64,000 nucleotides of DNA from an uncultured delta proteobacterium (GCA_963845095.1 CAWJQM010000006.1:2786-66785), one strand, 5' to 3'; positions 46,245 to 63,852 are shown, counted from the stretch's first letter. Program-made: numbers and translations. The notes: generated by a model not told the origin, from the letters alone.

Positions 46245-47279
46245 ATGAAAACAAGAATAACGGAACTCTTGGGAATCAAACATCCCATCATTCAGGCGGG
46301 AATGAGCTATGTATCTTTTGTTCAATTGGCCGCCGCTGTTTCCAACGCCGGCGGTTTGGGAATTATGACCGCCAGCGAACAGACTCCGGATGAACTGAGA
46401 GCCAATATCAGGAAACTGAGAGAACTGACCAAAAATCCGTTTGGTGTAAATCTTGTGCCGTATGTTCCCCGGTACCGTGAATTAGTCCAGATTATCCTCG
46501 ATGAGAAGGTGCCCGTATTCAGCCATGGGTTAGGCAATCCGTTCAAGTTGCTGAATATTCAAAAACCACCGGATATGATATTCATTCCTACTGCCGGCAA
46601 TGTTAAGCAGGCTCAAAAGATGGAAAAAGACGGCGCCGATGCCCTGATCATTCATGGCTTTGAAGGTGGCGGCCACGTAGGTTATGTGGCCAGCACCATC
46701 CTTCTGCCGGAAGCCGCGGAGTGCCTCAAAGTTCCCATCCTGGCTTCAGGTGGTTTCTGTGACGGGCGCGGTCTTGTGGCCGCTCTGGCCATGGGCGCCG
46801 ACGGTTTGGCCATGGGCAGCCGTTTTGCCATTACCCAGGAAAGCCCCATTCATGCAAATGTGAAAGCCGCCGCCTTGACCTGCCGGTCTGAGGATACGGT
46901 CGTATCAACCAACTATGACGGATTGCGTCTCCGCAGCATACCCAGCAAGAAAATGGTAAAATATCCGGGGTGGTGGTCCCGGCCGTGGGAGGTTATCCCC
47001 AGCGGGTTGGCGATGAAAGGGGCATTCAAGACATCGTTCAGAGACCTCTATCGTATTTTGAAAGAACTTAAAAAGTACAATACGCCGCTGATCCAATTTG
47101 CTGTCGGCATTGAAAAGGTGCGGTCCACGCTGGCGGATGGAGAAATGAATAAAGGCATGATACCGGCCGGTCAGGTGATGGGCAGATTCAAGGATGTTCC
47201 CACCTGTCAGGAATTAATCGACCGGATTATGCGTGAAGCCAACGAAACACTGGATCTGATGTGCAAGATTGAAAGATAG
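46245..47279 (+). CDS. nitronate monooxygenase / FabK-like FMN-dependent enoyl reductase family protein
   Basis: The N-terminus ITELLGIKHPIIQAGMSYVSFVQLAAAVSNAGGLG and the internal GADALIIHGFEGGGH match NMO family signatures. Confidence 0.85.
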   Translation: MKTRITELLGIKHPIIQAGMSYVSFVQLAAAVSNAGGLGIMTASEQTPDELRANIRKLRELTKNPFGVNLVPYVPRYRELVQIILDEKVPVFSHGLGNPFKLLNIQKPPDMIFIPTAGNVKQAQKMEKDGADALIIHGFEGGGHVGYVASTILLPEAAECLKVPILASGGFCDGRGLVAALAMGADGLAMGSRFAITQESPIHANVKAAALTCRSEDTVVSTNYDGLRLRSIPSKKMVKYPGWWSRPWEVIPSGLAMKGAFKTSFRDLYRILKELKKYNTPLIQFAVGIEKVRSTLADGEMNKGMIPAGQVMGRFKDVPTCQELIDRIMREANETLDLMCKIER

Positions 47280-50300: not shown

Positions 50301-50511
50301 ACCGGACGGAATAGACGCCCAGTTTGGGAGAGACCAGGGTTTTCTTTTCCACTTCTTCCTGCAGTTCCGAAAGAATCTCATGTGCTTTTAACCCGGTCAG
50401 TTCGGCAAGCCAGTCAACGTTGAATTCATCATCGAACAACAAGGCCGTGGAAATGATCTTTTGCTTCAACAAAGGTTGAAATATTGGAGACATTGTGTTT
50501 TGCCTTTCCAT
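47392..50511 (-). CDS. sigma54-dependent transcriptional activator with ~560-aa TPR-like N-terminal region and a GAF domain
   Basis: AAA+ core: Walker A GETGVGKE, GSFTGA (GAFTGA variant), LFLDEI and RFRADLYYRL. C-terminal HTH AAAILGVPPSTLVFRMKKLGI. A GAF-like segment (GAERGAIFMLEE...VPLTISNNAAGVLYYDN) precedes the AAA+ core. Confidence 0.9.
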   Translation of the reverse strand: MERQNTMSPIFQPLLKQKIISTALLFDDEFNVDWLAELTGLKAHEILSELQEEVEKKTLVSPKLGVYSVRSNQKRAAASETGVEDEAEMHRRIVDLLVRDLPEEDSKWLRLSHHLMKMPNNLEGCHLLSQAGDVHRKCFRTEQAFQCYYKVLEDLRNLYGKDSDLLFAETAVKYAKISTVRQDTSQVLATLKEALKRAKKLNNIAYQALLEMHIAKNEWLRTNFDQALTHFENGWTLAKNLDDPHIIDSVTAFGTFFLFWQGRFREAVESYERSVQEIEKHPQSRFPILGKMTVGYCYAQTGNYTQGLGMLDALRTHCLERGDLYLASYAITLIGEIMLDMRQLDDALHDLEQSAEMAAKTDNRGAFMLSHMFLAFAYYLKGNNSHAIELLHVFYKHQKETGATVLPYPHLLALAWEINQGRFPQVKDLSLQEEIVNMISSKNIYMQGLGYRFQAFMMEQAGAEPSQIIETHKDSIRLLEESGHKVALSRSCLALSRYLLKNGQLEHAREMEIRAAGMLSALDEKIVPDDLQYLIDREKGSERLLKEIMELGKEFVKIRDRRDLVQKIISAGNRVTGAERGAIFMLEEDKEGEKRLQLKASRNLTADEVERPDFSSSLKMIEDVRATGQGAIAGQATDDENAYTSSSIRSKICVPLTISNNAAGVLYYDNLILSSTFKETDLGILSYFSALAAIAIDNASAYDEINRLNKKLTQEKQYLEEENLNQLKFDDIVGTRKEMGQVLTKIEQVASTETTVLITGETGVGKELVARAIHRHSARKDKPFIGVQLSALPAELMSTELMGHEKGSFTGATQRKIGRFELANGGTLFLDEIADISLDLQIQLLRVLQTRQFERVGGTQTLHCDFRLITATNSDLLKKVQEGRFRADLYYRLNVFPIHVPPLCERKDDIPLLAYHFLKLHAARLNKNVSSIPESEMRKLVLYDWPGNVRELQNIIERGVILSSNHHFYMPKLKPDNRVSAETEEALTLAENERRHIVRILKKTGEKVAGPQGAAAILGVPPSTLVFRMKKLGIKRSRR

Positions 50512-50716
50512 GTACTGGCAATGGTCAGATTTAATTTAATAGATTTCTAAATATATAGTTTAAAATCATTTGTCAATTCCACTCTTGATATATGGTGTTT
50601 TGGTATCAACATTTGGAGAGCAGGTGTCTATATCCCTTTATATATTACTCTTGAGTATTGCAACTTATTTATGTAAAACATTAATATAATAGCACTAATA
50701 ACTTAAGTCATAAAAT

Positions 50717-50732
50717 TGGCATCATGCATGCA
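50717..50732 (+). promoter_or_regulatory. sigma54 (-24/-12) promoter, divergent from the activator gene
   Basis: TGGCAT-catgc-ATGCA with the canonical offset, about 120 nt upstream of ATG 50850. Confidence 0.65.
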
Positions 50733-50849
50733 TCTAGCATGTGCAAGATATTGTTTCATTTGTAGGAGAAATAGTTACGCTTTTTGTCAGGTTGCACAAA
50801 AGTACCGGGCAATGAATAGCAACTAAATTAAATTAAGGAGGTGTTATTG

Positions 50850-52419
50850 ATGTCATCAAAGAATTATGATGTAGTGGTGGTTGGGTCAGGGATGGGCGGA
50901 CTGAGTACGGCGGCTATTCTTGCTGTTAAAGAAGGGAAGAAAGTCCTGGTGCTGGAGAAGGAATCGTTCTTCGGCGGGCGTCTGCTGAGCTTTTACGGCA
51001 GAGACAGGCAAATCTGGATCCAGGGTAAACCATACGAATATAAAGATTTTAAAAAGGCATTGGCGAAGCACCGGTACATGGGTCGTTCACGATGAGCCCG
51101 ATTTCGAAACGATAGTCAAAGAAGGTCAGTTTGATCATTGTATAAATGACGGCGGGCACGGCTTGTTCTGGGGCGACAAAAGCAGGGTCTCCTTCCTCTG
51201 CAAATTCTTAGGGTATCCGGTTTGGATGAAAGTCAACAAAGGATACGCAATAATAGATCACAAAGATCATACGAAGTTTTTCCAGGTTGAACATGGCCAA
51301 CCTTACGGGTGGATGGCTGACGGAGGCAAAAGTGCCAGAAACCTGCTGCGTGATATGGCGACCATGCCCTTTGCAGATATAGAAAATTCCCGAGAGTCGT
51401 TGGGTGACTTCCTTGTGAAGAGAGGTTGCACCGAAGAAAAAGACTGGGAAAACTGGGTATATATCAGAAACCTGGCCGGTTCTCAGACTGCCATGGCCGA
51501 TCCTTTTGATATGCATGTGCGGGATTTCCTGAAGTATCAGTCCATTGCCAAGGACATTAAACTCGATCTGGTAAAAGGTTCGGTTGCCACAATAGACGCG
51601 CCCTATGGTATTCTAGATATTGCCGAGCAACTGAAAAAAGCGATTGTTGATAACGGCGGAGATGTATGGACCGACTCGGCCGTGGAAGAAATTATTATTG
51701 AGAACAAGAAGGTCAAGGGAGTCAGGTTTAAGACCAAGAAGGGAACCGAAACAGTCGATGCATCCATTGTTGCCTGTAATATTCCTCCGAAGCATGCTTT
51801 CAAAGTTATTCCGGAGGAAAATTACCCCGCTGATTTTGTGCAGGAAGTAAAGGAGAAATATTACATTCCCGGACTCCTGACGGGATTTTACAGCTCGTAT
51901 AAAATAGATTGGTTCCGGGAGAAGGGTATCGATCCCCGGAGTTTCACGTTCTTAAATGGCGTGTGCCCGCAGAAGAAAGGTCTGGAGAAACTGGATTTTG
52001 TAATGAGCAACTTAGACACATGGGCAAATGTCGCTCCCTCGGGGCTCCACGTACAAGTGTTCTCCATTCCGTTGATGCGTGAAGAGATGCATAACAAGGA
52101 CAAGGTTAACGCCTGTATCGCCGAGGCCGAGCTGTTCCTCACGGACAACTGGCCTACCTGGAAAAAAGATATTGTTAACCATTTCTGGACAGCCGGTTCT
52201 GAGGCTTATGGACACTGGAGACCGATCGGCAAAGACAGGCCTGACAGCAAGTGCCCGTGGGTTGACGGATTGTATTTCGTGGGAGATCAATACGGGAAGA
52301 AAGAATGGGGTGGCGGTGTTGATGGCGCTGCGCTTTCCGGTGCATTGTGCGCTGATGCCATTACCGGCAAAGACTACGAAAAACAGATATTCCCAGTTTA
52401 CCATCGCTCTTCCTGGTAG
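50850..52419 (+). pseudogene. FAD-dependent oxidoreductase (CrtI / phytoene-desaturase-like), one frameshift near 51065
   Basis: The dinucleotide fold is [32 protein letters not shown] 50841-1095 switches into the 51163-52419 frame, which is already open from ~51058 (...[12 protein letters not shown]...). The C-terminus is GLYFVGDQ...GGGVDGAALSG. Confidence 0.75.
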
Positions 52420-52466
52420 TAAATTGCAAAGCGGAGGACTGGGGCTTTATTAACTTATTAATTAAG

Positions 52467-52506
52467 AGCATCACAGTGTGCAGCTAAGCAGGCACACTGT
52501 GATGCT
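52467..52506. terminator. 15-bp perfect stem-loop between convergent genes
   Basis: AGCATCACAGTGTGC / GCACACTGTGATGCT with a 10-nt loop. Confidence 0.5.
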
Positions 52507-52558
52507 TGCCAGAAACAAGACAATCATCGAAGGCTTTATTGCGTCTTCGCAACCGGAA

Positions 52559-52593
52559 ATTCCGTTCGCAGATATTTATTCTGCGAACGGAAT
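52559..52593. terminator. 13-bp perfect stem-loop between convergent genes
   Basis: ATTCCGTTCGCAG / CTGCGAACGGAAT with a 9-nt loop, 33 nt beyond the stop of the minus-strand gene. Confidence 0.45.
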
Positions 52594-52625
52594 AATATTT
52601 GCACAATAACAAAGACAGTCCCGGT

Positions 52626-54071
52626 TTACTCCTTGATTCCGGCTACTTTCCTGGCCAGTGCCATGGCCGGTTCGGAATCGTAACCTCTGAGCATCATCAT
52701 CCGCTGAGCTTCCAGAGTACCCTCTCCATGGACCGTACCATACATGTGAACGCCCAATTCTGAAGAACCGGTCAGATCGCGGACCAGTTTCAGCATGCGG
52801 ATGCGATTCTCCGTCGATATCCCCTTGCGGCCGACGAGATAATAATCGATGTAGTCCTTCAACTCCGGAGTGCTGTAATCTATGGAACTCGGACAAGTTG
52901 CGGCAATTCCTCCCGCAATTTCCTGCAGACAACGCAGATTCTGATGGAAGCCGCTGGCAAAAAGGTACTTGCCGACATTGCAGCACATCTGATTAGGCAT
53001 GGCCAAACCGTTTCTGTACTGGGGCTCGTAGGCGGCCATCATGCTGTAAGTGCGGATGCTTTCGATGTACATGATCATTTCCCGCAGTTTGTCCTTGATA
53101 TGGGAAGCTTTGGCGACACCGTTGTAATCCGCAATCAACGTGGCCGCTCCCAGCATGAGCTCCGCGACCGGTCCCTTGTAACAGAGGCCGGTGAAGCGGT
53201 GCCATGCTGCAAACGTTACGGCAAGATCGCCGGCAAACTCCACCTCCCCGCAGAGGAATATCCTCTCGGTGGGGATGAATACATTGTCGAAGATGACCAT
53301 GGCATGGACAATGGGATGGGGCGCGCTCAGGGGAAACTCGAACGCATCATGAGGAGTATAATCGGGATTGGCGATCATCTTCAACCCCGGTGCATTGGCC
53401 GGAACGGCGAAGGCCACAGCCCAGTCTTCATCGCCTTTTCCCATAGCCCGGGTGGGCAGTACAAGCAATTCATTTACCATAGGTGCGGATGTAATATGAA
53501 CTTTGGCCCCTTTTACCACAATGCCGTCCTTGCGTTTTTCAACGATACGCAGGTAGGTTTCCAGATGGGGTTGTTCATGGGGCCGAAGTGCCCTGTCGCC
53601 TTTCGGATCAGTGACGGCTCCGGCAAGCGAAAGGTCGTTTTTCTGGCAGAAGTGATGATAGTTCTTCACCCTTTCGAAATAGGAAGTTCCATATTTCTTG
53701 TCCACATCGGTACAAATCATCCGCAAGGCGAACAGAGCGTCCGTGCCTATTTCCTTCACGGAGCCAAAGGGGATATAGCCTCCGGCATAAAGGCACGAAC
53801 GGTAGATGGTTTCACGTCGGGCCTTAAGATCGTTGCTGTTGGCCGGCAGCCGGTAGCAGCCCGTAATTGTCTCTCCCGTTTCCGGGCATGTCGTTACGCA
53901 ATGTGAGGCCTGCTCCGGGTCCAGGGCCATCTCATAGGTCAATGCCAGGTGCTCAATGGCCGCTTTGAACCTGTGGTGTGAGGCAATATCGACAACTTTT
54001 TCACCGTCAACCCAGACCTCCCGGCCATCCTGCAAGCTTTCAATGTACTGTTTTGGTGTTTTTAGCGCCAT
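52626..54071 (-). CDS. HpaB / AbfD-family protein (4-hydroxyphenylacetate 3-hydroxylase / 4-hydroxybutyryl-CoA dehydratase superfamily), copy 1
   Basis: 481 aa. The N-terminus TPKQYIESLQDGREVWVDGEKV is typical of the family. GAGGAG RBS. Confidence 0.8.
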   Translation of the reverse strand: MALKTPKQYIESLQDGREVWVDGEKVVDIASHHRFKAAIEHLALTYEMALDPEQASHCVTTCPETGETITGCYRLPANSNDLKARRETIYRSCLYAGGYIPFGSVKEIGTDALFALRMICTDVDKKYGTSYFERVKNYHHFCQKNDLSLAGAVTDPKGDRALRPHEQPHLETYLRIVEKRKDGIVVKGAKVHITSAPMVNELLVLPTRAMGKGDEDWAVAFAVPANAPGLKMIANPDYTPHDAFEFPLSAPHPIVHAMVIFDNVFIPTERIFLCGEVEFAGDLAVTFAAWHRFTGLCYKGPVAELMLGAATLIADYNGVAKASHIKDKLREMIMYIESIRTYSMMAAYEPQYRNGLAMPNQMCCNVGKYLFASGFHQNLRCLQEIAGGIAATCPSSIDYSTPELKDYIDYYLVGRKGISTENRIRMLKLVRDLTGSSELGVHMYGTVHGEGTLEAQRMMMLRGYDSEPAMALARKVAGIKE

Positions 54072-54133
54072 ATAAAATCTCCTCTTTATAATTTAATTTG
54101 TGTTCCCCTTTTCTCATCTTCGATCTTCGGAAT

Positions 54134-54149
54134 TGCAATGGGCATGCCA
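54134..54149 (-). promoter_or_regulatory. sigma54 (-24/-12) promoter for the minus-strand HpaB/AbfD-family gene
   Basis: The minus strand reads TGGCAT-gccca-TTGCA with the canonical offset, about 64 nt upstream of ATG 54071. Confidence 0.75.
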
Positions 54150-54401
54150 GAACAAAGTAATTCAAATAACAAAACAATAATTATATATTAATAGGAAGTG
54201 TTTTTTATTGCTTATGGTCCGGCTTCAGCACGGCGGGATTCCTTTTGCGGCAAAACTCCAATTCCAATATGCCAAGTTGGCGAGGCGCAAACCGCTAGCC
54301 TTTCCCGGGTTGTGGCTAAAATCCACTGCGAGGTGCCGGCCAAATGGTTAAATTACTAAGAAGGAACGCCGAATCTGTGCATGAGTTGCCGACCCAATAC
54401 G

Positions 54402-54432
54402 CAACATTTCGTTTGACGAAAACGATATGTTG
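54402..54432. promoter_or_regulatory. 31-bp inverted repeat (13-5-13, 12/13 matched), activator-site candidate
   Basis: CAACATTTCGTTT-gacga-AAACGATATGTTG, centred 96 bp upstream of the GG of the 54512 promoter. Confidence 0.4.
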
Positions 54433-54510
54433 TGACTTAATTTATTTGTCAGGGGTAGAGAGAGGGGATGAAAAGCCCTGATTATCTGTTAACACAACAA
54501 CTTAAATATA

Positions 54511-54666
54511 TTGGCACCTGTCTTGCAATCTTTTATTACTTTTGAGTCAGGGTTGTAATTGTCAACACCAACATGTTTAGGAGTTGTCCATGCTGAAAGT
54601 TACAAATCTCGAAACAACTTACAACGATATAATTTTGGCGCTAAAGGGTATATCCCTGGAAGTTCC
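54511..54666 (+). repeat. 156-bp duplicated segment, copy 1 (partner 62979-63134)
   Basis: About 96% identical (roughly 6 mismatches). It spans the sigma54 promoter, the leader, the RBS and the first 26 codons of a LivF-like ATPase. Confidence 0.9.
54512..54527 (+). promoter_or_regulatory. sigma54 (-24/-12) promoter
   Basis: TGGCAC-ctgtc-TTGCA, a perfect consensus. Confidence 0.8.
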
Positions 54667-54751
54667 GCTCCATCGATCCTACATCACTACCGGCTTATAT
54701 GGCGATTGCGAAGCACCTGATGAAGGACTAATCCAGTGGAAGACGTCATAA
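54590..54751 (+). pseudogene. 5-prime remnant of a LivF-like ATPase gene (26 conserved codons, then unrelated sequence to a stop)
   Basis: MLKVTNLETTYNDIILALKGISLEVP is identical to the start of 63058-63852. Homology ends at 54666, before the Walker A motif. The chimeric ORF has 53 codons. Confidence 0.75.
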
Positions 54752-54908
54752 GCAGCCTCGAAGGCCGGCCATTACGCGCCGGCGCCGAAGTCCAAATAGA
54801 ACAGTGTCGAAATAGATGTCAAGGGTTGTTTGCAGCGTCGCTGTCCCCGTTCCACAGCGGGACAGCAACGGTAATAATATTGACCATATTATATAAAGGA
54901 GGAAGTAT

Positions 54909-56120
54909 ATGAAAATTAGATTGTGGGGATTAAGCTTGATGTTGGCAGTTGTTCTCTGCCTGTCGATGAACAGTGCCTGGGCAGCAGATGTCCGCGGCGT
55001 TACGGATAAGGAAATCAAGATCGCCTGGCTTACCGATCTCTCGGGACCGGGGAAATACGCTGGTCCTCCTATGTCCGATGTGGCCAGGGATTTTGTGGCT
55101 ATGGTCAATGACAAGGGCGGGATCAACGGCAGAAAAATCAATTTGATTATTGAGGACAACGGGATCCTTCCCAGCACGACGATGAACGCCGCCAAGAAAG
55201 TGATCCTCAAGGATGGAGTGTTTGCCATTGCCATGAATCTGGGCAGTGCCGGCTCCAGGGCAATTTTGCCCCTGTGTGAGGAGAACAAGGTCGTCCTCAT
55301 GCCCCACGGGGCCAATAAGGATTTCTACTCTCCCGGCAACAAATGGGTCTTTGTGCCCCATACTGTCCAGTTCGATATGGCCGCCCGGGCAGTTGACTAT
55401 ATTCTCGAAAAAAACAGCAAGGCACGGATCGGGATGATCTATCAGGATGACGATTTCGGCAGGGAAGGCCTGGCCGGCGCCAACGCGGCTGCCGCAGGTA
55501 TGAAGACGAAGCTTGTGGCTCAGGCCCCTTACAAGACCGGTACCATCGATTTCACGCCGCACATGAACGCCATGAAGGAAGCCAATGTGGACGCTATCGT
55601 GCTTTGGACATATTTGCCGCAGTCGGCTGCCATTATCAAACAGAAAGTCAAGATGGCCTGGAATGTCGATCTGATCTCCAACAATACGACAGATTCTCCG
55701 GCGCTCTTTGCCCTGGCCGGTGAAGCGGCAGACGGTTATATGCTGGTAACGCCTTACGCTCCACTGCATCTGACTAACCTTTCGGGGGTGCAGCGCGTCA
55801 GAGAGATGAACAAGAAATACGGCAATCCCGCCAAGACGCTGGACGATCCTGCATACAACTCATACCTGTATGCGTCTTCTTACGGCTACCTTGTGGCCCT
55901 GGTCGAGGGGCTCCGCAAAGCGGGAAGAGATCTTAATCCGGAAACTTTTATCAAAGGTCTGGAAAGCATTAAAGACTATGATATGGGCGGCCTGTGTCCA
56001 AATATTACCTTTGGACCAAAGCAGCATGTGAGCAGTTTCTCCAGCATGGTGCTCAGGGCAGACGCCAAAACCAAACGCTTTGTCATTGCCGCTCCCATTA
56101 AAGAGCCCAAGACACATTAG
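54909..56120 (+). CDS. ABC transporter periplasmic substrate-binding protein (LivK / Peripla_BP_6 type), no adjacent permease genes
   Basis: AAGGAGGAAG RBS. The signal peptide is LWGLSLMLAVVLCLSMNSAWA. The strings IKIAWLTDLSGPGKYAG and EDNGILPS are present. Confidence 0.85.
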   Translation: MKIRLWGLSLMLAVVLCLSMNSAWAADVRGVTDKEIKIAWLTDLSGPGKYAGPPMSDVARDFVAMVNDKGGINGRKINLIIEDNGILPSTTMNAAKKVILKDGVFAIAMNLGSAGSRAILPLCEENKVVLMPHGANKDFYSPGNKWVFVPHTVQFDMAARAVDYILEKNSKARIGMIYQDDDFGREGLAGANAAAAGMKTKLVAQAPYKTGTIDFTPHMNAMKEANVDAIVLWTYLPQSAAIIKQKVKMAWNVDLISNNTTDSPALFALAGEAADGYMLVTPYAPLHLTNLSGVQRVREMNKKYGNPAKTLDDPAYNSYLYASSYGYLVALVEGLRKAGRDLNPETFIKGLESIKDYDMGGLCPNITFGPKQHVSSFSSMVLRADAKTKRFVIAAPIKEPKTH

Positions 56121-56172
56121 AATTAGTCGGAAGAATGATGTTCGTCTAATCGTGTGGATCAAAGTCTATTCG

Positions 56173-56213
56173 TTAATGTCAGGAGGCGGGCAGGACCAGC
56201 CTCCTGACATTAA
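56173..56213 (+). promoter_or_regulatory. intercistronic stem-loop after the SBP gene
   Basis: A 15-bp perfect inverted repeat (TTAATGTCAGGAGGC / GCCTCCTGACATTAA) with an 11-nt loop. Confidence 0.55.
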
Positions 56214-56376
56214 TATTATCACCACCGTTGCAGTCACGAAATTCTTCCAGGCTTTGGGGAGCAACAAGCCGCTGCTGAAGCAGAGAATTTCTCCTGCGCC
56301 GATTTGGCGGCTTGCGCAGCCCGAAGAAATCAGTGTCGTGTCGTCTTATTCCTGGCAGAGGCGGCGGCCTGCATGA
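56206..56376 (+). pseudogene. possible C-terminal remnant of a short-chain dehydrogenase/reductase gene
   Basis: The frame reads ...DINIITTVAVTKFF...ISPAPIWRLAQPEEISVV.... This resembles the SDR tail IRVNAVAPG...IPLGRLGQPEEIA, with no N-terminal part present. Confidence 0.3.
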
Positions 56377-56447
56377 CAAGAAAGATCATGCTTAGTGTAA
56401 GACAGAAAATATTCCGAAGATTCAAAAATCAGGAGGTATAAATTGCA

Positions 56448-57893
56448 ATGGGTTTAATGACAGCAGATCAATATAGAGAAAGTTTAAACGACGGCAGGGT
56501 TGTCTATTATAAAGGCAAGAAGATCGATAATGTGTGCGAACATCCCCACCTTGCCGCCTGCGTCAATACGGTGGCTGTGGATTATGAAATGGCCCACGAT
56601 CCGAAGTATAAGGATCTGGCGCTCGTTTACGATGAAGAACTCAAGGAAAATATCAGCAGGTACAACTATCTACCTAAAAATGGCCAGGATCTGCTGAAGC
56701 AATTGGAACTGATCATCAAGGCCACAGAACTGGGGAATGGCTATATACCCCTGGCCCACGATATCGGCGCCGATGCCATGAACGCCATTGCCATTACGGC
56801 GAGAACCATGGGCGATGCCGGTAAAGAGTATGCGGAACGCATCGAAAAATACCGGACATATCTGAAGAAGACGGACAAGTGCGTTGTCGCGGGTGTGACC
56901 GATGCCAAAGGCGACCGGCGTCTTCGTCCGTCCGATCCGGGTCAGGCTAATCCCGACTTTCACGTGCGCCTGGTCAGCAAAGACGATAAGGGGATTATCG
57001 TCCGGGGCGCCAAGGTTCACATTACCGGAGCCTCCTACTGCAATGAATTCTTCGTTATCCCCTGCCGGGCGCTGAGTGGTCCCGAGGATGCTCCCTATGC
57101 CGTTGCCTTTGCCATTCCGGCCAATACCAAGGGTGTCCGGCAGATCATTCGTCCCTTTCATGGATTAATCAACGACGATGAGTTCCCCGTGAAAAATCAG
57201 TGGAGAAACATGCACACGGACTCTCTCATTATTTTTGATGACGTCTTTGTTCCCTGGGAAAGAGTATTCCTTTGCGGCGAGTGGAAGTTTGCCGCCACCA
57301 TGGTTTACAATTTTGCCCTCATGCACCGCCGCACGGGATGCGCTTACCGTATACCCTTGAGTGAGCAACTGCTGGGGGTTGCCCAGGCCATTGCCGAATA
57401 CAACGGCATTGCCGACGCTCCCCACGTCAAGGAAAAGATCACCGATATCGTGATCTATCTGGAGACGCTCGTTGCACTTTCCCGATCGGCTTGTCTGGAT
57501 TTCGTGGATCATGCGGGTATTCCCGTTCCCAATCCCATTACAACCAATATTGCCAAGTACCATTTTGCCCACAACTATCACCGGATGATGGAGATAATCC
57601 AGGATCTTTCCGGCGGGCTCCTGGTGACCGCTCCGACCTACCGAGACTGGTGCAACCCCGAGACTCACGAGGACATCAAGAAATACCTCCAGGGCAGTGC
57701 TAAAGTTCCGACAGAGCACAGATTGCGGATGTTTGATCTGATTCGCCGAGTGACCTCAGGCGACCAGGAAACGATTTGTCTCCACGGCGAGGGATCGCCC
57801 TTTGCGGAAAGAATGACTATTCTCATGGAAGCGAAAAAAGTCATCGCCCGCTGCAAGGCGATAGCCGAGGAGATGGCGGGAATTAAGAAGTAA
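56448..57893 (+). CDS. HpaB / AbfD-family protein, copy 2
   Basis: 481 aa. The N-terminus MTADQYRESLNDGRVVYYKGKKI fits the family. AGGAGG RBS. Same length as, and collinear with, 52626-54071. Confidence 0.8.
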   Translation: MGLMTADQYRESLNDGRVVYYKGKKIDNVCEHPHLAACVNTVAVDYEMAHDPKYKDLALVYDEELKENISRYNYLPKNGQDLLKQLELIIKATELGNGYIPLAHDIGADAMNAIAITARTMGDAGKEYAERIEKYRTYLKKTDKCVVAGVTDAKGDRRLRPSDPGQANPDFHVRLVSKDDKGIIVRGAKVHITGASYCNEFFVIPCRALSGPEDAPYAVAFAIPANTKGVRQIIRPFHGLINDDEFPVKNQWRNMHTDSLIIFDDVFVPWERVFLCGEWKFAATMVYNFALMHRRTGCAYRIPLSEQLLGVAQAIAEYNGIADAPHVKEKITDIVIYLETLVALSRSACLDFVDHAGIPVPNPITTNIAKYHFAHNYHRMMEIIQDLSGGLLVTAPTYRDWCNPETHEDIKKYLQGSAKVPTEHRLRMFDLIRRVTSGDQETICLHGEGSPFAERMTILMEAKKVIARCKAIAEEMAGIKK

Positions 57894-57988
57894 CTAAACC
57901 GCATTGGACTTCGATGCGGCCACCTCTTTACGGTGGCGCGCATCGGAAGCAAAGTGTTCTTGCTGGGTCTTATTAAAGGAGGTTAACG

Positions 57989-59173
57989 GTGAGTAAATTG
58001 AAAGGTAAGATGGCGTTCGTCGGGATCGGCGAGGTGCCGACGGGACGCTTCCCGGAAACGGCGGCGATCTCGCACGGCCTGGAATCAGCCAAGATGGCGA
58101 TACGGGATGCGGGGATAAACAAGGACGAGATTGATTATGTGTTCCCAACGGCTGCAGTCTTCAATAATAGTTTTAGTAATGAGCTGGCGATCTGCCGTGT
58201 GGTGGAAGAACTGGGACTGAAAAACGTGAAAGTGAATAGCCAGATATGGGCTGGTGGGTCGAGCAGTACCGTTGCAGTGGAGTTGGCTGCAAGTTTAATC
58301 AACAGTGGTGCGGCCTCGACGGTTTTGTTTCTTCATAATGAGCGGCTGGGCACCGGTGTCAGCCTGCAGGGCGGAATTGATGTTTTTGCGACAGGGGGAA
58401 TATCCGCGGAGTGGGAGGTGCCCTTCGGTCAGCATTATTCTTCAATCGCCGCGCTCTCGACGATGCGGTACAAATATGAGACGGGCTGCACCGATGAGCA
58501 GTTGGCGGCTGTATGCGTGTCCAACCGGAAATGGGCCGAGCTGAATCCGAATGCGTTTTTCCGCAAGCCTTTAACGCTGGAAGAGGTGATGTCCTCGAAG
58601 ATGCTGTCGACGCCGCTGCGGGCGAAGATGTCAAACATGCTCTTCGACGGGGGATGTGCCTTTGTTATGACCTCGGCGGAACGCGCCCGGGATCTTACCG
58701 ATAAACCGGTATATCTGCTCGGCGAAGGGGGTCATGTGTCACACTTTGTATATGCCCAGGAGCCGGATGTGGCGCGTTTCAGCTGGGCGCGGGCGGCAAA
58801 AGAAGCTTTTGAGATGGCGGGATTAACAGCGAAGGACATGGACATTGCGGAGATTTATGATTCCTATCCCATCTTTCAGCTGATCGGTTTTGAGGAGCTG
58901 GGTTTTGCCGAGCGCGGTCAGGGCGGCGAGATGTTCCTGAAAGGAGACACCTGGCCCGGAGGGAAGATGCCGACGACAACTAATGGAGGCATGTTATCGC
59001 AGGGTCATACGGGAGCCGGTGGTTCCTGTGCCCTGATGGTGGAGACGGTGCGTCAACTGATGGGGAAAGCCGGAGATCGTCAGGTAAAGAATGCTAAATT
59101 CGCCGTGGAAACGGCGGTTGGCGGGACATACATGGATGCCCATGTTACGATTCTGGGGACAGAAATTCCGTAA
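57989..59173 (+). CDS. thiolase-like protein (SCP-x / BbsB-type partner of a DUF35 protein)
   Basis: AAGGAGG lies 6 nt upstream of a GTG start. The strings FVGIGEVPTGRFPE, EIYDSYPIFQL and TNGGMLSQGHTGAGG match the thiolase-like fold. Confidence 0.75.
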   Translation: MSKLKGKMAFVGIGEVPTGRFPETAAISHGLESAKMAIRDAGINKDEIDYVFPTAAVFNNSFSNELAICRVVEELGLKNVKVNSQIWAGGSSSTVAVELAASLINSGAASTVLFLHNERLGTGVSLQGGIDVFATGGISAEWEVPFGQHYSSIAALSTMRYKYETGCTDEQLAAVCVSNRKWAELNPNAFFRKPLTLEEVMSSKMLSTPLRAKMSNMLFDGGCAFVMTSAERARDLTDKPVYLLGEGGHVSHFVYAQEPDVARFSWARAAKEAFEMAGLTAKDMDIAEIYDSYPIFQLIGFEELGFAERGQGGEMFLKGDTWPGGKMPTTTNGGMLSQGHTGAGGSCALMVETVRQLMGKAGDRQVKNAKFAVETAVGGTYMDAHVTILGTEIP

Positions 59174-59191
59174 CATGAAAGGAGAAAAAGA

Positions 59192-59617
59192 ATGGATAAT
59201 CAAGCAAATCAAAAACCAAGTCCTGTAGTCAATCCCTGGTCGCAACCATTTTGGGATGCTGCCCGCGAAGAAAAACTGGTGATTCAGCATTGCCGGGACT
59301 GCGGAGCGAATATTTTTTATCCGCGGATTGCCTGTCCGCAATGTTTTTCGGATAATCTGGAATGGATTCAGGCGTCGGGTAAAGGCACCGTGTATACGTA
59401 CACTGTGGTGGTGAGCAATTCTCCATCGGCATTTATTGCCGACATGCCTTTTGTGATAGCAATAGTGAAACTGGCGGAAGGTGTTCAGATGCTGAGCAAT
59501 ATTGTGGGGTGCAAGCCGGATGATGTACGCTGCGATATGCCTGTGGAGGTAGTGTTCGAGAAACTCAACGAGAAGTTCAAACTTCCCAAGTTCCGTCCCG
59601 TAAGTAAGCCGTTGTAG
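59192..59617 (+). CDS. DUF35 Zn-ribbon + OB-fold protein (BbsA-type partner of a thiolase-like protein)
   Basis: 141 aa. The strings PFWDAAREEKLVIQHCRDCGANIFYPRIACPQCFS (CxxC...CxxC) then GKGTVYTYTVV are the canonical DUF35 layout. Confidence 0.8.
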   Translation: MDNQANQKPSPVVNPWSQPFWDAAREEKLVIQHCRDCGANIFYPRIACPQCFSDNLEWIQASGKGTVYTYTVVVSNSPSAFIADMPFVIAIVKLAEGVQMLSNIVGCKPDDVRCDMPVEVVFEKLNEKFKLPKFRPVSKPL

Positions 59618-59765
59618 AAGATAATCAGGCCGCTTAAATGGCGCGACAACCGCTAAAGGGTGGCAAGGCAGCATAAGGATCCGTAACGTGATGGTCCGGA
59701 AAATAACATTTATTTTGTTGTAACGGCTCCTAAGTAGAATACGGTTAGTGTAAGGAGAGTCGACT

Positions 59766-60221
59766 ATGACACAGAAATATTACGAAGATTTCGATATCGG
59801 GTTTAGTTTCAAGACGCTGTCCATTACGGTGACGGAGACGCACGTGGTGAACTGGGCGGGACTGACCATGGATTTTTACCCTCTGCATATGGATGCTGAG
59901 TATTGTGCGAAGACGGTATTTAAGGAACGGATCGCCCATGGTCCTTTGATTTTCGGCATGGCCGTCGGGATGGCCGGTCTGGCGAAACAGGAGGGCGGGT
60001 CGATCATTGCCTGGATGGGGGTGGATAATATGCGGATGCTGTCTCCGGTGAAGTTCGGGGATACGATCACCCTCTATGTAGAGGTGGTGGAGCGGAAAGA
60101 GACGAGCAAGCCGTCGCAGGGTTTGCAGACCTGGCGCTATACGGTTAAAAATCAGCGCGACGAAAAAGTAATGGTTCTCGATATGAAGTTTCTCATGCAA
60201 CGGAAACCTGCAAACGCCTGA
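59766..60221 (+). CDS. MaoC-like (R)-specific enoyl-CoA hydratase / hot-dog fold protein
   Basis: 151 aa. The strings D.YPLHMDAEYCAKTVFKERIAHGPLIFGMAVG are the MaoC dehydratase signature. Confidence 0.8.
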   Translation: MTQKYYEDFDIGFSFKTLSITVTETHVVNWAGLTMDFYPLHMDAEYCAKTVFKERIAHGPLIFGMAVGMAGLAKQEGGSIIAWMGVDNMRMLSPVKFGDTITLYVEVVERKETSKPSQGLQTWRYTVKNQRDEKVMVLDMKFLMQRKPANA

Positions 60222-60281
60222 TCTATTCGGTCTTACCGACTTTAGGAAGGCCGGACTAAAATCTTGGGGAGGAGATCTAAA

Positions 60282-61430
60282 GTGGATTTTAATTTTACAG
60301 AGCAACAGAATGAATTTCGGGACAAGGTACGGGGATATGTGGACACAAACATTACCCCGTCCGTAGTCCGCGAAATTGAAGAAAAGGACGAATTTCCTCA
60401 TGATCTCGTTAAGAAATTTTGTGATCTGGGTTTAGCCAAGGTCAATATACCGGAGGAATACGGCGGCATGGGTGGCGGCATCTTCGAGCTCATGATCATC
60501 AATGAGGAGATCGCCAAGAAACTTCCGGTGCTGGGCTGGAACACCGGCAACATCCTTTTATACGGGAATGAAATTATCGGTGTGAACGGCAACAAGGAAC
60601 AGAAGGATGAATTCTTTCCGAAACTGGGCCGGGGCGAAATCATGTTCAGTTTCGCCATTACGGAACCGAATGCCGGGTCCGATGCCGCCGGTATTAAAAC
60701 ACGGGCGTTTTTCGAGAACGGGCATTACGTGATCAACGGCGGCAAGATGTTTATCACCGGTGCGGGTGTTTCGCGCTACACGGTGACATTCGCCAGGACA
60801 GCCGAATCAAGATACGGCGGAATTACTTCTTTTATCGTTGACACGACTTTGGAAGGCTACAGCACCAAGCCTATCAAGAAGTTAGGCTTTCATGGCTCCA
60901 ACACCTGTGAGATTGTCTATGACAATGTCCGGGTGCTGCCGTGGTTTATTCTGGGTGGAGAAGAGAAGGGGCTGAACAACGGCTGGAAGCAGGAGATGAA
61001 GCTTTTGAATCAGGAGCGTCTGCTTTTGTCATCAATGACACTGGGAATGGCGCATGCCTCTTTTGAAGAGGCACTGGAGTTTGCCCGGGCGAAGATGAAG
61101 CGGACGGCTCCGTCAACGGATGTGCAGTCCATTCAGCACGACATAGCGGAGATGGCTTCCCAGCTGGAGGCGATGAAGGTACTGGTTTACAGTACCGCCT
61201 GGAAGGAGCAGCAGGGGATGAATCCGGTGCGGGAAACATCGATGACCAAGTACTTCTGCGCCGAAACGGCCAAACACATTATTATGAAGGGAATGAATGT
61301 TCTGGGTGAGTACGGCGCCTCGATGGATTACAATATGCAGAGAAACCTCAGGGAAATTCTTATTTTTTCCATTGGCGGCGGCACTTCGCAGATCCAGAAA
61401 AACATCATCTGCAAGTCGTATGGATTGTAG
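60282..61430 (+). CDS. acyl-CoA dehydrogenase
   Basis: GGAGGAG lies 7 nt upstream of GTG 60282, giving MDFNFTEQQNEFRDKV. The strings FAITEPNAGSDAAGIKTRA and YGASMDYNMQRNLREILIFSIGGGTSQIQ are present. Confidence 0.9.
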   Translation: MDFNFTEQQNEFRDKVRGYVDTNITPSVVREIEEKDEFPHDLVKKFCDLGLAKVNIPEEYGGMGGGIFELMIINEEIAKKLPVLGWNTGNILLYGNEIIGVNGNKEQKDEFFPKLGRGEIMFSFAITEPNAGSDAAGIKTRAFFENGHYVINGGKMFITGAGVSRYTVTFARTAESRYGGITSFIVDTTLEGYSTKPIKKLGFHGSNTCEIVYDNVRVLPWFILGGEEKGLNNGWKQEMKLLNQERLLLSSMTLGMAHASFEEALEFARAKMKRTAPSTDVQSIQHDIAEMASQLEAMKVLVYSTAWKEQQGMNPVRETSMTKYFCAETAKHIIMKGMNVLGEYGASMDYNMQRNLREILIFSIGGGTSQIQKNIICKSYGL

Positions 61431-61461
61431 AAATCAGAATGCAAAAGAAAAGGGATGAAAA

Positions 61462-62601
61462 ATGGATTTCGGACTGACTGAAGAGCAGGGATTTATTCGG
61501 GATACGATACGGAAGTTTGTCGCGAAGGAGTGTGAACGGGAAGCCATCAATAAAATGGATGAGGAAGAAAAATATCCCGCTAAACTCTTTGGCAATGTGG
61601 CGGAGATTGGTTTGTGCGCGCTGACGGTTCCCGAAGCCGATGGCGGCGGCGGGCCCAATGCCCTGGGTGCGGTGATTGTGACGGCTGAACTTGCAGCTAT
61701 ATATCCCGCTCTGGCCGGGATTTTTGCCACCCAAAGCATTTGCGCAGGCAAGGTGATCGCCGATCTGGGGACGAAAGAGCAGAAAGATAAATATCTGCCC
61801 GGCGTAATCGACGGCTCAACGCTGATTACGATCGGCCTGATGGAACCGGGCCAGGGTTACGAGGAGGCGGGAAGCGCAACGACGGCGAGACGGGAAGGAG
61901 AAAGGATAGTTCTTGACGGGACAAAATCTTTTGTGCGTTTTGCCGATCATGCCGCTTTTATGATTACGCGCACTGCCCTGGACAGCTCCGGTGTTCCGGC
62001 TTTCATGATTGTTGATCTGAAGAGCCCCGGCGTGGCTGTTAGTCCGCTGAAACAGGTGGGATTTCACGGGATGAGCTTGTGTGATGTTTCCCTGAACTCT
62101 GTTGCCGTTGCGGCCAGTGAAATTCTTGGTGGTGAGGGGGATGCAGCGGCCCAAAAGAAAAAATGGGAAAAGATTCTGGGTGCGGAGCATCTGGCTGTGG
62201 CGGCCTGCGGGATGGGACTTGCCCGGGGCGCCTATGAATATGCGCTCAATTATGCCAAGGAGCGCGTGCAGTTCGGCCGGCCGATTATCAAATTCGGCGC
62301 CATTGCCGAGATGCTGGTAGATATGGCACAGTATGCCCGCGTGGCTGAAATACTGACCTGTCAGGCGGCGTCTCTTATCGACCAGGGTAAGGATTGCCTG
62401 GTGGAAATAATTCAGGCGAGAATTGCGGCAACGGAAGCAGCACATAAGACATCGTTGTATGGTGTGCAGATATTCGGCGGCTATGGTTATGCCATGGAAT
62501 ACGATGCCCAGCGTTATCTGCGGGATGCCATGGTTGTGCTCACCGGCGGGGGAACCAAACAGGTTCTGAGCAACACGCTGGCGTCACTCTGGGGGTATTG
62601 A
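61462..62601 (+). CDS. acyl-CoA dehydrogenase
   Basis: MDFGLTEEQGFIRDTIRKF, and YGYAMEYDAQRYLRDAMVVLTGGGTKQV. Confidence 0.9.
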   Translation: MDFGLTEEQGFIRDTIRKFVAKECEREAINKMDEEEKYPAKLFGNVAEIGLCALTVPEADGGGGPNALGAVIVTAELAAIYPALAGIFATQSICAGKVIADLGTKEQKDKYLPGVIDGSTLITIGLMEPGQGYEEAGSATTARREGERIVLDGTKSFVRFADHAAFMITRTALDSSGVPAFMIVDLKSPGVAVSPLKQVGFHGMSLCDVSLNSVAVAASEILGGEGDAAAQKKKWEKILGAEHLAVAACGMGLARGAYEYALNYAKERVQFGRPIIKFGAIAEMLVDMAQYARVAEILTCQAASLIDQGKDCLVEIIQARIAATEAAHKTSLYGVQIFGGYGYAMEYDAQRYLRDAMVVLTGGGTKQVLSNTLASLWGY

Positions 62602-62978: not shown

Positions 62979-63134
62979 TTGGCACCTGTCTTGCAATCTT
63001 TTGTTGGTCTTGAGTCAGGGTTGTAATTGTCAACACCAACATGTTTAGGAGTTGTCCATGCTGAAAGTTACAAATCTCGAAACAACCTACAACGATATTA
63101 TTTTGGCGCTAAAGGGTATATCCCTGGAAGTTCC
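62979..63134 (+). repeat. 156-bp duplicated segment, copy 2 (partner 54511-54666)
   Basis: See copy 1. Here the segment continues into a full-length ATPase gene. Confidence 0.9.
62980..62995 (+). promoter_or_regulatory. sigma54 (-24/-12) promoter
   Basis: TGGCAC-ctgtc-TTGCA, a perfect consensus, 63 nt upstream of ATG 63058. Confidence 0.8.
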
Positions 63135-63852
63135 TCAAGGTAAGATTGTTGCCCTCCTCGGCGCCAACGGCGCCGGTAAAACCACCACCCTCAATACAAT
63201 ATCCGGAATACGCAAGACGCTCGATCTGGAGATTGAAGACGGCACTATTGAATTCGCCGGAGAGATAATCAATAAAAAAGAGCCCTATAGCATTGTTGCC
63301 ATGGGAATCTCTCAGGTTCCCGAGGGCAGGCGTGTTTTTGCTGAACTGACCGTTGAGGAAAATATTATGATCGGTTCCTATACCCTTGCGGATCGTAAGA
63401 AGTATCCTCTGAGCCTGGAGACGATCTTCCGTTATTTCCCCATTTTGAAAGAACGCCGCCATCAGCTTGCCGGTTACCTCAGTGGCGGAGAGCAGCAGAT
63501 GCTGGCTATTGCCCGGGCCCTTATAGCCGATCCGCGGATGATGATGCTGGATGAACCGTCCCTCGGGATTGCGCCTCTGGTCGTGAAAGAGATATTTGAA
63601 ATCATCAGCACCATTAATAAGGAAAGAGGCGTGTCCGTTTTGCTGGTGGAACAGAACGCCAACGCCGCTTTATCGATCGCCCATTTCGGTTACATCATGG
63701 AAAACGGTAGGATCGTGATGGAAGGACCGAGCGAAGTATTGCGTGAGAACAGGGATATCAAGGAATTTTATCTTGGTTTGACGAATGTAGGTACCAAGAA
63801 AAGCTTCCGGGACGTTAAACATTACAAGAGAAGGAAAAGATGGCTTTCATGA
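63058..63852 (+). CDS. HAAT-family ABC transporter ATP-binding protein (LivF-like)
   Basis: AGGAG RBS. Walker A GANGAGKTT, signature LSGGEQQML and Walker B MLDEPSLGI. Confidence 0.9.
   Translation: MLKVTNLETTYNDIILALKGISLEVPQGKIVALLGANGAGKTTTLNTISGIRKTLDLEIEDGTIEFAGEIINKKEPYSIVAMGISQVPEGRRVFAELTVEENIMIGSYTLADRKKYPLSLETIFRYFPILKERRHQLAGYLSGGEQQMLAIARALIADPRMMMLDEPSLGIAPLVVKEIFEIISTINKERGVSVLLVEQNANAALSIAHFGYIMENGRIVMEGPSEVLRENRDIKEFYLGLTNVGTKKSFRDVKHYKRRKRWLS

Follow-up and report, generated by a model that had tools for sequence, protein, structure and literature searches.

A putative sigma54-controlled gene cluster for coenzyme A-thioester catabolism with two AbfD-like flavoproteins predicted to lack the iron-sulfur cluster

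The DNA analyzed here (hereafter, the window) is a stretch of 64,000 nucleotides, read on one strand, from an uncultured delta proteobacterium (GCA_963845095.1, CAWJQM010000006.1:2786-66785). Between positions 50717 and 62601, the window carries two genes, denoted para1 and para2, for paralogous 481-amino-acid (aa) proteins of the HpaB/AbfD family, surrounded by genes for enzymes that act on coenzyme A (CoA) esters. A preliminary description, made from the sequence alone, took this region for an uncharacterised sigma54-controlled CoA-thioester pathway; this reading stands, given that the literature searched contains no characterised operon with this gene set and that both proteins lack most of the iron-sulfur cluster ligands of AbfD. 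The central features, compared where possible with a 98%-identical relative contig (L001), are the following.

46245-47279, plus strand: NMO/FabK-like flavin mononucleotide (FMN) oxidoreductase, 344 aa (Pfam NMO 3.8e-65; TIGR03151 FabK 8.4e-80, below the cut-off)
50850-52419, plus strand: flavin adenine dinucleotide (FAD) protein of the CrtI/phytoene desaturase (PDS)/amine-oxidase fold, frameshifted (intact 522-aa ortholog in L001)
52626-54071, minus strand: para1, AbfD-like flavoenzyme, predicted to be Fe-S-free, 481 aa (Pfam HpaB_N 4.6e-83, HpaB 2.5e-55)
56448-57893, plus strand: para2, AbfD-like flavoenzyme, predicted to be Fe-S-free, 481 aa (Pfam HpaB_N 2.2e-78, HpaB 8.3e-54)
57989-59173, plus strand: thiolase-fold protein of the SCP-x/Ltp type without the nucleophilic Cys (Pfam Thiolase_C_1), a predicted retro-aldolase
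59192-59617, plus strand: DUF35 protein (zf-ChsH2 and OB_ChsH2_C) with a C-x2-C-x10-C-x2-C zinc ribbon
59766-60221, plus strand: MaoC-type (R)-specific enoyl-CoA hydratase, 151 aa, with the D-x4-H catalytic pair
60264-61430, plus strand: acyl-CoA dehydrogenase (ACAD) a, 388 aa (Pfam/NCBIfam, motif analysis)
61462-62601, plus strand: ACAD b, 379 aa, with a degenerate first ACAD signature

Both paralogs contain the HpaB_N and HpaB domains, as originally proposed, and are 38% identical to each other. Among solved structures, para1 matches AbfD of C. aminobutyricum (1u8v, 8.5e-80), the 4-hydroxybutyryl-CoA dehydratase (4HBD) of N. maritimus (2.6e-72) and, as the best HpaB, an entry at 2.6e-49; the corresponding values for para2 are 6.1e-65, 1.3e-60 and 2.8e-50. 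The AlphaFold model of para1 (pLDDT 90) aligns with 1u8v at a template modelling (TM) score of 0.91 and with HpaB structures at 0.9. By sequence comparison, both proteins are nearer to AbfD than to HpaB, and they share with AbfD (1U8V) and the N. maritimus enzyme (6VJR), besides the domain architecture and fold, 32-36% identity, the TDPKGDR motif, T190, H188, H292-R293, K/R300 and the setting among CoA-ester enzymes.

The [4Fe-4S] cluster of AbfD is held by Cys99, Cys103, His292 and Cys299. The AbfD sequence was rebuilt from a printed alignment, with C/C/H/C recovered at these four positions as expected, and in the multiple alignment, the respective columns read P/E/H/Y in para1 and P/D/H/Y in para2, that is, three of the four ligands are lost in both paralogs, H292 alone being kept. 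The lack of a CxxxC pair around residues 90-105, noted at the outset, is borne out by the peptides RSCLYAGGYIPF and ATELGNGYIPLA, both of which are found as quoted. The “His...Cys pair” recognized further downstream (WHRFTGLC / MHRRTGC) survives only in part: the His is the invariant H292, but the Cys aligns with AbfD G298 or earlier, 1-2 positions before C299, is Ser or Ala in most homologues, and is neither a cluster ligand nor conserved. An alignment of homologues, comprising 239 full-length sequences among the best 120 matches per paralog (240 matches), gives the same picture. The C99 column contains P, L or I, the C103 column E, except for D throughout the para2 clade, and the C299 and A460 columns invariant Tyr and invariant Glu, respectively; H292 is invariant, R293 and H188 are conserved, and position 190 is Thr or Ser. 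Furthermore, Y296 is replaced by Gly or Ala and E455 by Gly, Ile or Leu across these sequences; in the paralogs themselves, Y296 is Gly, E455 is Gly (para1) or Ile (para2), and E257 is His or Asp. Set against AbfD, the differences thus amount to C99 to P/L, C103 to E/D, C299 to Y, Y296 to G, E455 to G/I and A460 to the invariant E. Zhang and co-workers reportedly found in 2015 that Tyr296, Glu455 and Glu257 of AbfD are catalytically important. Going by these columns, the ligand loss is family-wide and not peculiar to this genome, and para1 and para2 are predicted to be AbfD relatives free of Fe-S, in which the active site is remodelled and contains many acid/base residues.

These observations bear directly on whether para1 and para2 could be classical 4-hydroxybutyryl-CoA dehydratases serving a 4-hydroxybutyrate/crotonate pathway. 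It is true that PDB and fold comparisons alike place AbfD and the N. maritimus 4HBD at the top, that databases give relatives that name, and that an iron-type alcohol dehydrogenase (Fe-ADH) gene is present, the only one, 26 kb upstream of the paralogs. The ligand columns, however, contradict this assignment, with C99, C103 and C299 absent from both proteins and from all 239 homologues; the clade is separate from AbfD; and none of the open reading frames (ORFs) between 44 and 64 kb is an abfH/abfT-type 4-hydroxybutyrate gene, all of them fitting other families. The partners are instead a CrtI-fold flavoprotein, a FabK-like enzyme, a short-chain dehydrogenase/reductase (SDR, in relatives) and an aldolase-type module. 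We consider a classical AbfD function extremely improbable.

The other obvious assignment, to the O2- and FADH2-dependent HpaB-type aromatic hydroxylases, fares no better. The paralogs share the Pfam/NCBIfam HpaB domains and the overall fold with enzymes such as that of T. thermophilus (2YYG), and some distant family members occur in aerobic lineages, but scores against the hydroxylase models are far too low (TIGR02309, 204/208 bits against a cut-off of 480; TIGR02310, 140/108 against 885), and para1 matches HpaB at 1e-49 versus 1e-80 for AbfD. The phenol-binding residues of TtHpaB, which Kim and co-workers are said to have identified in 2007 as R100/Y104/H142, are not conserved, the equivalent positions being gap/Ala/Gly in para1 and gap/Ala/Ala in para2, as in AbfD. 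No flavin reductase gene is found among the 44-64 kb ORFs (ORF list, Pfam/NCBIfam), the genes lie among CoA-ester enzymes, and the nearest named relatives of the window proteins come from metagenome-assembled genomes of Syntrophales/Smithellaceae, a strictly anaerobic lineage. An aromatic hydroxylase function is, accordingly, hardly credible, and the initial suspicion that the paralogs are neither classical AbfD nor O2-dependent HpaB is upheld on both counts.

Database searches at E ≤ 1e-20 yield more than 3,800 relatives for each paralog. In a neighbour-joining tree rooted on HpaB, AbfD and the archaeal (N. maritimus) 4HBD form the sister group of all sequences that lack the [4Fe-4S] ligands (hereafter, cluster-less), among which para1 and para2 fall into separate deep clades. 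The para2 clade is tight, with more than 100 cluster representatives at 65% identity or higher from Syntrophales, Desulfobacterales, Desulfomonilaceae and Chloroflexota; the para1 clade is smaller and nested in a diverse second group of cluster-less sequences. Distant cluster-less members (49% identity or less), among the matches listed, come from Poribacteria, Binatia, Latescibacterota, Acidobacteriota, Chloroflexota, Bathyarchaeia and Asgard archaea. Public names of the relatives include “4-hydroxybutyryl-CoA dehydratase/vinylacetyl-CoA isomerase”, “aromatic ring hydroxylase” and “hypothetical”, and no characterised cluster-less AbfD-like enzyme appears in the literature searched, so that this is a large, uncharacterised family that is routinely mislabelled in databases. 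In one of its distant occurrences, on a Poribacteria chromosome (L007 8696-12308), the cluster-less gene has a Gfo/Idh/MocA oxidoreductase gene on one side and an SDR gene on the other, and its surroundings contain no CoA-related genes. Archaeoglobus fulgidus and Desulfatibacillum alkenivorans have multiple 4HBD homologues, for which a role in alkene or fatty-acid degradation has been speculated (PMC3949148); the cluster-less family may explain these.

We surveyed the gene neighbourhoods of the relatives using the called-gene tables of nine of them together with an ORF-versus-seed BLAST over 118 loci; partners were counted in non-redundant loci of at least 9 kb, namely, 4 of the para1 clade, 15 of the para2 clade and 69 with other cluster-less genes. 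The counts, in this order, are listed below.

Thiolase-like and DUF35: 4/4; 9/15; 0/69 (DUF35 alone, 1)
MaoC: 4/4; 7/15; 0/69
ACAD: 4/4; 11/15; 12/69
CrtI-like: 3/4; 11/15; 1/69
NMO: 3/4; 9/15; 4/69
SDR: 2/4; 13/15; 35/69
FadB-like: 1/4; 11/15; 10/69
AMP-forming ligase (AMP-ligase): 3/4; 10/15; 15/69
Sigma54 activator: 0/4; 8/15; 5/69

The contrast with the “other” group is somewhat overstated because the seed BLAST is less sensitive across phyla. That two anciently diverged clades recur with the same partners, among them the NMO/FabK-like gene, favours a shared pathway over chance juxtaposition; what we describe is a widespread conserved gene cluster and not a peculiarity of this genome. Variant clusters add a true thiolase, a metallo-beta-lactamase (MBL)-fold protein, or a 3-hydroxy-3-methylglutaryl (HMG)-CoA-synthase-like/DUF35 fusion together with an archaeal-type thiolase. 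The fusion, in which an HMG-CoA-synthase-like protein is joined to a DUF35 OB domain, occurs in some para2-clade clusters (L085 11580-14258; also L092, L097 and L109), where its gene adjoins that of an archaeal-type acetoacetyl-CoA thiolase (PRK06157, 689 bits), a candidate second thiolase-superfamily/DUF35 complex in a catabolic setting. A very frequently assembled cluster version, found in 150 blocks of the contig collection, is that of the para2-type protein P0180 (L088-L090), with the gene order TetR-TetR-SDR-CrtI-like-AbfD-like-thiolase-thiolase-like-DUF35-MaoC-ACAD-FadB-like-ACAD-MBL-NMO and with TetR rather than sigma54 control.

The genes directly downstream of para2 were initially likened to a BbsAB-type thiolase-like/DUF35 pair. 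The two genes are present side by side, as are those of the thiolase-fold and separate DUF35-type Zn-finger subunits of the benzoylsuccinyl-CoA thiolase BbsAB, but the catalytic Cys is absent and the scores (NCBIfam BbsB, 121.6 bits against a cut-off of 750; BbsA, 40.1 against 250) are far below those required. The best PDB match of the thiolase-like protein is the uncharacterised 4u4e (2.5e-60), followed by 9myr (4.9e-46), which is CtSal, a Comamonas bile-acid aldolase (PMC12329534), and then by Ltp2 (6ok1) and BbsB (7pxp). At the nucleophile position, a Gly (WAGGSSS) aligns with the Cys of AACASG in the thiolase 7yvy, and Gly is likewise found there in Ltp2, Sal and 4u4e; without a Cys at this position, the protein is unlikely to carry out thiolysis in the canonical way. 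By the aldolase motif definitions of PMC12329534, it retains the catalytic Tyr of the YD-x-[FY] motif, with IYDSY aligned to Y294DHF of Ltp2 and Y302DCY of Sal, and the DUF35 protein shows the canonical C4 ribbon pattern given in the same source. The thiolase-like protein thus appears to resemble the Ltp2/Sal steroid aldolases more than the BbsB thiolase, as no more than a possible member of the Ltp2 or Sal subfamily.

The MaoC hydratase and two acyl-CoA dehydrogenases noted from the outset are all present, at 59766-62601. ACAD a and ACAD b share 29% identity; in each, the MCAD-type Glu is missing and the IVD/LCAD position is occupied by a Glu, and the two classical ACAD signatures are degenerate in a complementary fashion between them, a pattern suggesting that the pair may form a ChsE-like heteromer. 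Together, these genes are best read as a putative dehydrogenase–hydratase–retro-aldolase module of the igr or Shy-Sal kind. As in ChsE1-ChsE2/ChsH1-ChsH2/Ltp2 and Shy/Sal, there are one or more ACADs, including two adjacent divergent genes, a MaoC protein, a Cys-less thiolase-fold protein with the conserved Tyr and a DUF35 zinc-ribbon/OB partner. Unlike in those systems, DUF35 and MaoC are separate small proteins with no fusion, the motif is YDSY, a His occupies the position of Ltp2 Tyr344, the closest structure is 4u4e, and the host is anaerobic, without further steroid genes in view.

The CrtI-like FAD oxidoreductase named in the preliminary description exists as a gene, but its reading frame is interrupted: compared with the intact L001 gene, one additional nt, a C, is inserted at about 51064. 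Its structural model (pLDDT 91) has 3ka7, the phytoene desaturase 5mog and monoamine oxidase as best folds at TM of about 0.6-0.66, that is, matches at the fold level only, to uncharacterised oxidoreductases, phytoene desaturase and amine oxidases.

With these partners in view, two narrower proposals for the AbfD-like proteins can be weighed. The first casts them as FAD-dependent 3,2-enoyl-CoA isomerases and the CrtI-like and FabK-like proteins as a double-bond isomerase and a reductase, all serving the auxiliary beta-oxidation of (poly)unsaturated fatty acids in anaerobes. AbfD is a bifunctional enzyme the isomerase activity of which, according to what Scherf and Buckel reportedly showed in 1993, does not depend on an intact cluster, and H292 and R293 are kept in the paralogs; a long-chain-type AMP-ligase, FadB-like enzymes, ACADs and a Liv-type transporter with an embedded ligase in the neighbourhood, as well as the role speculated for the Archaeoglobus and Desulfatibacillum homologues, point in the same direction. 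However, neither Y296 nor E455 is retained, the pocket has been remodelled, the linkage to the Cys-less thiolase-like/DUF35/MaoC genes (4/4 para1-clade and 9/15 para2-clade loci) is left unexplained, and two deep paralogous clades with the same partners exceed the need of a simple isomerase. On balance, this proposal is unlikely, if still a serious contender.

The second proposal is that these proteins are non-radical or flavin-only gamma-eliminases or hydro-lyases acting on 4-substituted acyl-CoAs (such as 4-hydroxy, 4-amino or 4-acyloxy) and, with an outcome like that of AbfD, feeding 2-enoyl-CoA into beta-oxidation. New invariant acid/base residues (E/D103, Y299 and E460) in place of the Lewis-acid cluster would suit such a reaction, and ACAD-fold flavoenzymes that eliminate a leaving group at C4 are known, namely, BbuA of the gamma-butyrobetaine pathway as well as ACAD10/11 and LvaC, both of which act on 4-phosphoacyl-CoA. 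The likeness, a possible flavin-assisted removal at C4 that gives an enoyl-CoA with no Fe-S cluster involved, would be mechanistic only, as these enzymes are true ACADs outside the HpaB/AbfD family. In addition, SDR and MBL-fold hydrolase (possible lactonase) genes accompany many relatives. Against this, the MBL gene is absent from the window, the clusters contain no kinase or other enzyme that would activate a poor leaving group, and any 4-substituted substrate is hypothetical; we regard this proposal as quite improbable.

The control of these genes can be read from a set of -24/-12 elements and the gene of an activator that they surround.

30482-30497, plus strand: sigma54-type promoter (TGGCATCTATTATGCT) of a block (30.8-45.3 kb) encoding a Liv-type ATP-binding cassette (ABC) system, AMP-ligase, TLP1, large ACAD, FadB-like protein and thiolase
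46124-46139, plus strand: sigma54-type promoter of the NMO/FabK-like gene, with a candidate upstream activating sequence (UAS) at 46021-46047
47392-50511, minus strand: enhancer-binding protein, 1039 aa, with a long N-terminal sensor region, GAF, AAA+ and helix-turn-helix parts
50717-50732, plus strand: sigma54-type promoter of the CrtI-like gene, candidate UAS at 50590-50614
54134-54149, minus strand: sigma54-type promoter of para1, 63 nt upstream of the ATG
54512-54527, plus strand: sigma54 promoter of the solute-binding protein (SBP)/para2 operon, with a looser UAS-like motif at 54404, 108 bp upstream
62980-62995, plus strand: sigma54 promoter before the intact livF-like gene, candidate UAS at 62876

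The L001 ortholog of the activator has Pfam GAF and Sigma54_activat domains, and NCBIfam gives matches to FhlA/NifA/NorR-type activators. The relaxed pattern TGGCAY-N5-WTGCW occurs 6 times in the window against 0.31 expected, the strict pattern TGGCAC-N5-TTGC has 2 exact matches against 0.13 expected, and the candidate UAS, ATATGG-N13-15-AYATDK (direct-repeat-like), is present in 4 strict copies (0.33 expected), each of which precedes a promoter by 103-127 bp. As the promoter and UAS patterns were both adjusted once the first matches were known, these statistics are indicative only. All six promoters are correctly oriented upstream of a gene or operon, and the upstream motif is common to five of them (four strict, one looser), including that at 30379 (ATATGG-N14-ACATGT), 103 bp upstream of the 30482 promoter. 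The NMO/FabK-like gene does have the same promoter type, as first noted, through the element at 46124. The divergent back-to-back promoters assigned to the two paralogs need a correction: the divergent pair exists, about 360 bp apart, between para1 and the SBP/para2 operon, but para2 has no promoter of its own, and its transcription comes from the 54512 promoter by way of the SBP gene. In Syntrophales relatives, a sigma54 promoter lies directly before an SDR-para2 operon. Sigma70 and terminator scans both remained within the shuffle background; a strong terminator follows the broken thiolase gene at 45320-45357. Taken together, the six promoters, spread over 30.5–63 kb, would define a regulon wider than the region first described, and its further genes and rearranged segments are as follows.

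41615-44038, plus strand: FadB-like 3-hydroxyacyl-CoA dehydrogenase/enoyl-CoA hydratase, 807 aa (3HCDH_N, 3HCDH and ECH in the L001 ortholog)
44105-45294, plus strand: thiolase gene, broken into at least 4 ORFs, the sole canonical thiolase gene in the window (intact, 396 aa, in L001)
54511-54666, plus strand: repeat copy 1, with a livF-like remnant from 54591 (same remnant in L001)
54909-56120, plus strand: Peripla_BP_6 (Liv-type) SBP (Pfam 1e-58)
56236-56377, plus strand: remnant of the 3' end of an SDR gene, recognized by comparison with relatives
62979-63134, plus strand: repeat copy 2, containing the start of the intact livF-like gene (63052)
63052-63852, plus strand: LivF-like ABC ATPase (ORF), the intact gene after repeat copy 2

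The stretch from 30.8 to 41.5 kb encodes a complete Liv-type ABC system with an embedded AMP-ligase, the thiolase-like protein TLP1 and a large ACAD, and the FadB-like gene at 41615-44038 probably belongs to the same sigma54 regulon. The PDB relatives of the SBP are generic Leu/Ile/Val-type binders only, with no narrower hint of a substrate. This protein had been called an orphan, which it is not: it lies behind a duplicated promoter and a livF 5' fragment, and ATPase genes follow from 63052, a second one starting near 63947 at the end of the window. The duplicated segment is a 156-nt direct repeat, 96% identical between its copies and comprising the promoter and leader together with ~76 nt from the start of livF, which flanks the 8.3-kb block from SBP to ACAD, so that the SBP belongs to a permuted transporter operon. 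The repeat implies, as far as its arrangement can tell, a duplication/deletion that permuted a combined transporter-plus-catabolic operon. A further change is a deletion of ~0.9 kb upstream of para2 that removed the 5' part of the SDR gene and its sigma54 promoter; the relatives L111, L112, L114 and L091 have an intact SDR gene directly upstream of para2 and, in most of them, the promoter as well. Contig L001 shares both the repeat and the SDR deletion but has intact CrtI-like and thiolase genes.

Damage of this kind raises the question of whether the locus is decaying in this genome and no longer functional. A frameshift interrupts the CrtI-like gene, the SDR gene is deleted, and the thiolase, permease and ligase genes are broken: the thiolase region is 91% identical to that of L001 with 12 gaps, and within 33112-34405, a LivM-like permease changes frame near 33720 and the N-terminus of the AMP-ligase (~34240-34405) is out of frame with the ORF at 34406-35908. 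Yet the two AbfD-like genes and the regulator gene are intact, as are the aldolase module, the ACADs and the NMO gene; the intact genes have 96-98% DNA identity to the relative in which the CrtI-like and thiolase genes are whole, and at least four single-base frame breaks within 20 kb fit metagenome-assembly indel errors better than decay. The frame breaks therefore suggest such errors, and we consider decay of the locus improbable.

Our preferred interpretation, to which we attach about an even chance of being right, is that 30.5-64 kb constitutes a single sigma54 regulon through which a carboxylic acid, once imported, is broken down as its CoA thioester. The GAF-containing enhancer-binding protein would drive the six -24/-12 promoters, the Liv-type ABC system would import the acid, and the AMP-forming ligase would activate it to the CoA ester; FadB-like and ACAD enzymes could then shorten the chain, the sole canonical thiolase gene being broken. 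The para2 operon would add a second C-C cleaving route, in which an ACAD (possibly the a/b heteromer) forms a 2-enoyl-CoA, MaoC adds water, and the Cys-less thiolase-fold protein, held by its DUF35 partner, cleaves the 3-hydroxyacyl-CoA by a retro-aldol reaction, as ChsE/ChsH/Ltp2 and Shy/Sal do on steroid side chains. Such a route would suit a chain that cannot be oxidised to the 3-oxo ester because a branch or bulky group stands in the way. The two AbfD-like proteins would be FAD enzymes in which Glu/Asp103, Tyr299 and Glu460 replace the [4Fe-4S] site while His292, Arg293, Thr190 and the fold are kept; we infer that the cluster-dependent radical dehydration was lost and that flavin-assisted acid/base chemistry on enoyl- or 4-substituted acyl-CoA took its place, either a 3,4 to 2,3 double-bond shift of the vinylacetyl-CoA type or an elimination or addition at C4. 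The AbfD-like proteins would act together with the CrtI-fold flavoprotein, the FabK-like FMN enzyme and, in relatives, the SDR, with the outcome that an unsaturated, hydroxylated or branched chain is brought into the beta-oxidation register. The substrate would, most likely, belong to the branched, unsaturated, hydroxylated or alicyclic acids.

Several points weigh against this interpretation. The losses of Y296 and E455 mean that even isomerase activity may be gone from the AbfD-like proteins. The thiolase-like protein has Ser at the position of Sal Cys304 (His in Ltp2) and His at that of Ltp2 Tyr344, and the C304S variant of Sal is inactive (PMC12329534), so that, as aligned, its catalytic set matches neither characterised aldolase; the reactions of both the AbfD-like proteins and this 4u4e-like (YDS[FY]/His) protein are, accordingly, predictions. 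With the Poribacteria member having no CoA-enzyme neighbours, CoA esters are not given as substrates for the whole family, which may include non-CoA enzymes. Finally, given the frameshifted CrtI-like gene and the deleted SDR gene, this copy may be partly non-functional or its sequence error-prone.

A bolder version of the proposed catabolic regulon would make the AbfD-like proteins a new enzyme class, with a chemistry unlike both AbfD activities and HpaB, for example, that of a hydro-lyase or isomerase that converts enoyl-CoA by means of the flavin and of carboxylate and tyrosine groups; with the CrtI-fold, FabK-like and Cys-less aldolase partners, they would make up an anaerobic route, widely distributed but so far undescribed, for the breakdown of a class of branched, unsaturated or alicyclic acids. 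We advance this only tentatively, as somewhat less probable than its negation. The system is not categorically new in that all its components belong to known superfamilies and the aldolase module has well-studied analogues; the predicted Fe-S-free sister family of AbfD and its conserved gene cluster are, even so, an uncharacterised variant that matters in practice for annotation.

The 4-hydroxybutyryl-CoA dehydratase gene serves as the signature of the 3-hydroxypropionate/4-hydroxybutyrate and dicarboxylate/4-hydroxybutyrate CO2-fixation cycles. The window proteins and thousands of their relatives carry this name yet, judging from the ligand columns, cannot bind the cluster, and a test of three columns (C99, C103 and C299) would separate them and avert false calls of autotrophy. 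The family also represents a natural experiment, an AbfD scaffold without the Fe-S cluster. Moreover, the recurrence of this set of seven or eight genes in groups ranging from Syntrophales to Desulfobacterales and Chloroflexota points to a common, unnamed substrate class in anoxic carbon turnover and offers a defined, tractable target for expression and assay.

No gene of the cluster matches an NCBIfam equivalog. Among known systems, those for limonene (PMC12583861) and the benzene “Magic cluster” (PMC13101534) were compared and found to be unrelated, and the cyclohexanecarboxylate, pimelate (pim) and naphthalene thn pathways, lysine fermentation, the phloroglucinol pathway and mevalonate biosynthesis were dropped as the matching genes are lacking. 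Upstream of the regulon, a stretch with 59% GC (24616-30267) encodes another AMP-ligase, the Fe-type alcohol dehydrogenase mentioned above (26612-27661) and an aldehyde:ferredoxin oxidoreductase that extends over two ORFs (28397-29050 and 29626-30267); these are possible handlers of alcohol or aldehyde products. Still farther upstream (3381-13277), there is a type I secretion locus with a 1560-aa RTX-repeat/M23-peptidase protein, an outer-membrane efflux protein and a fused ABC/HlyD-type exporter, and the GC content of the first 4 kb of the window is only 35-37%.

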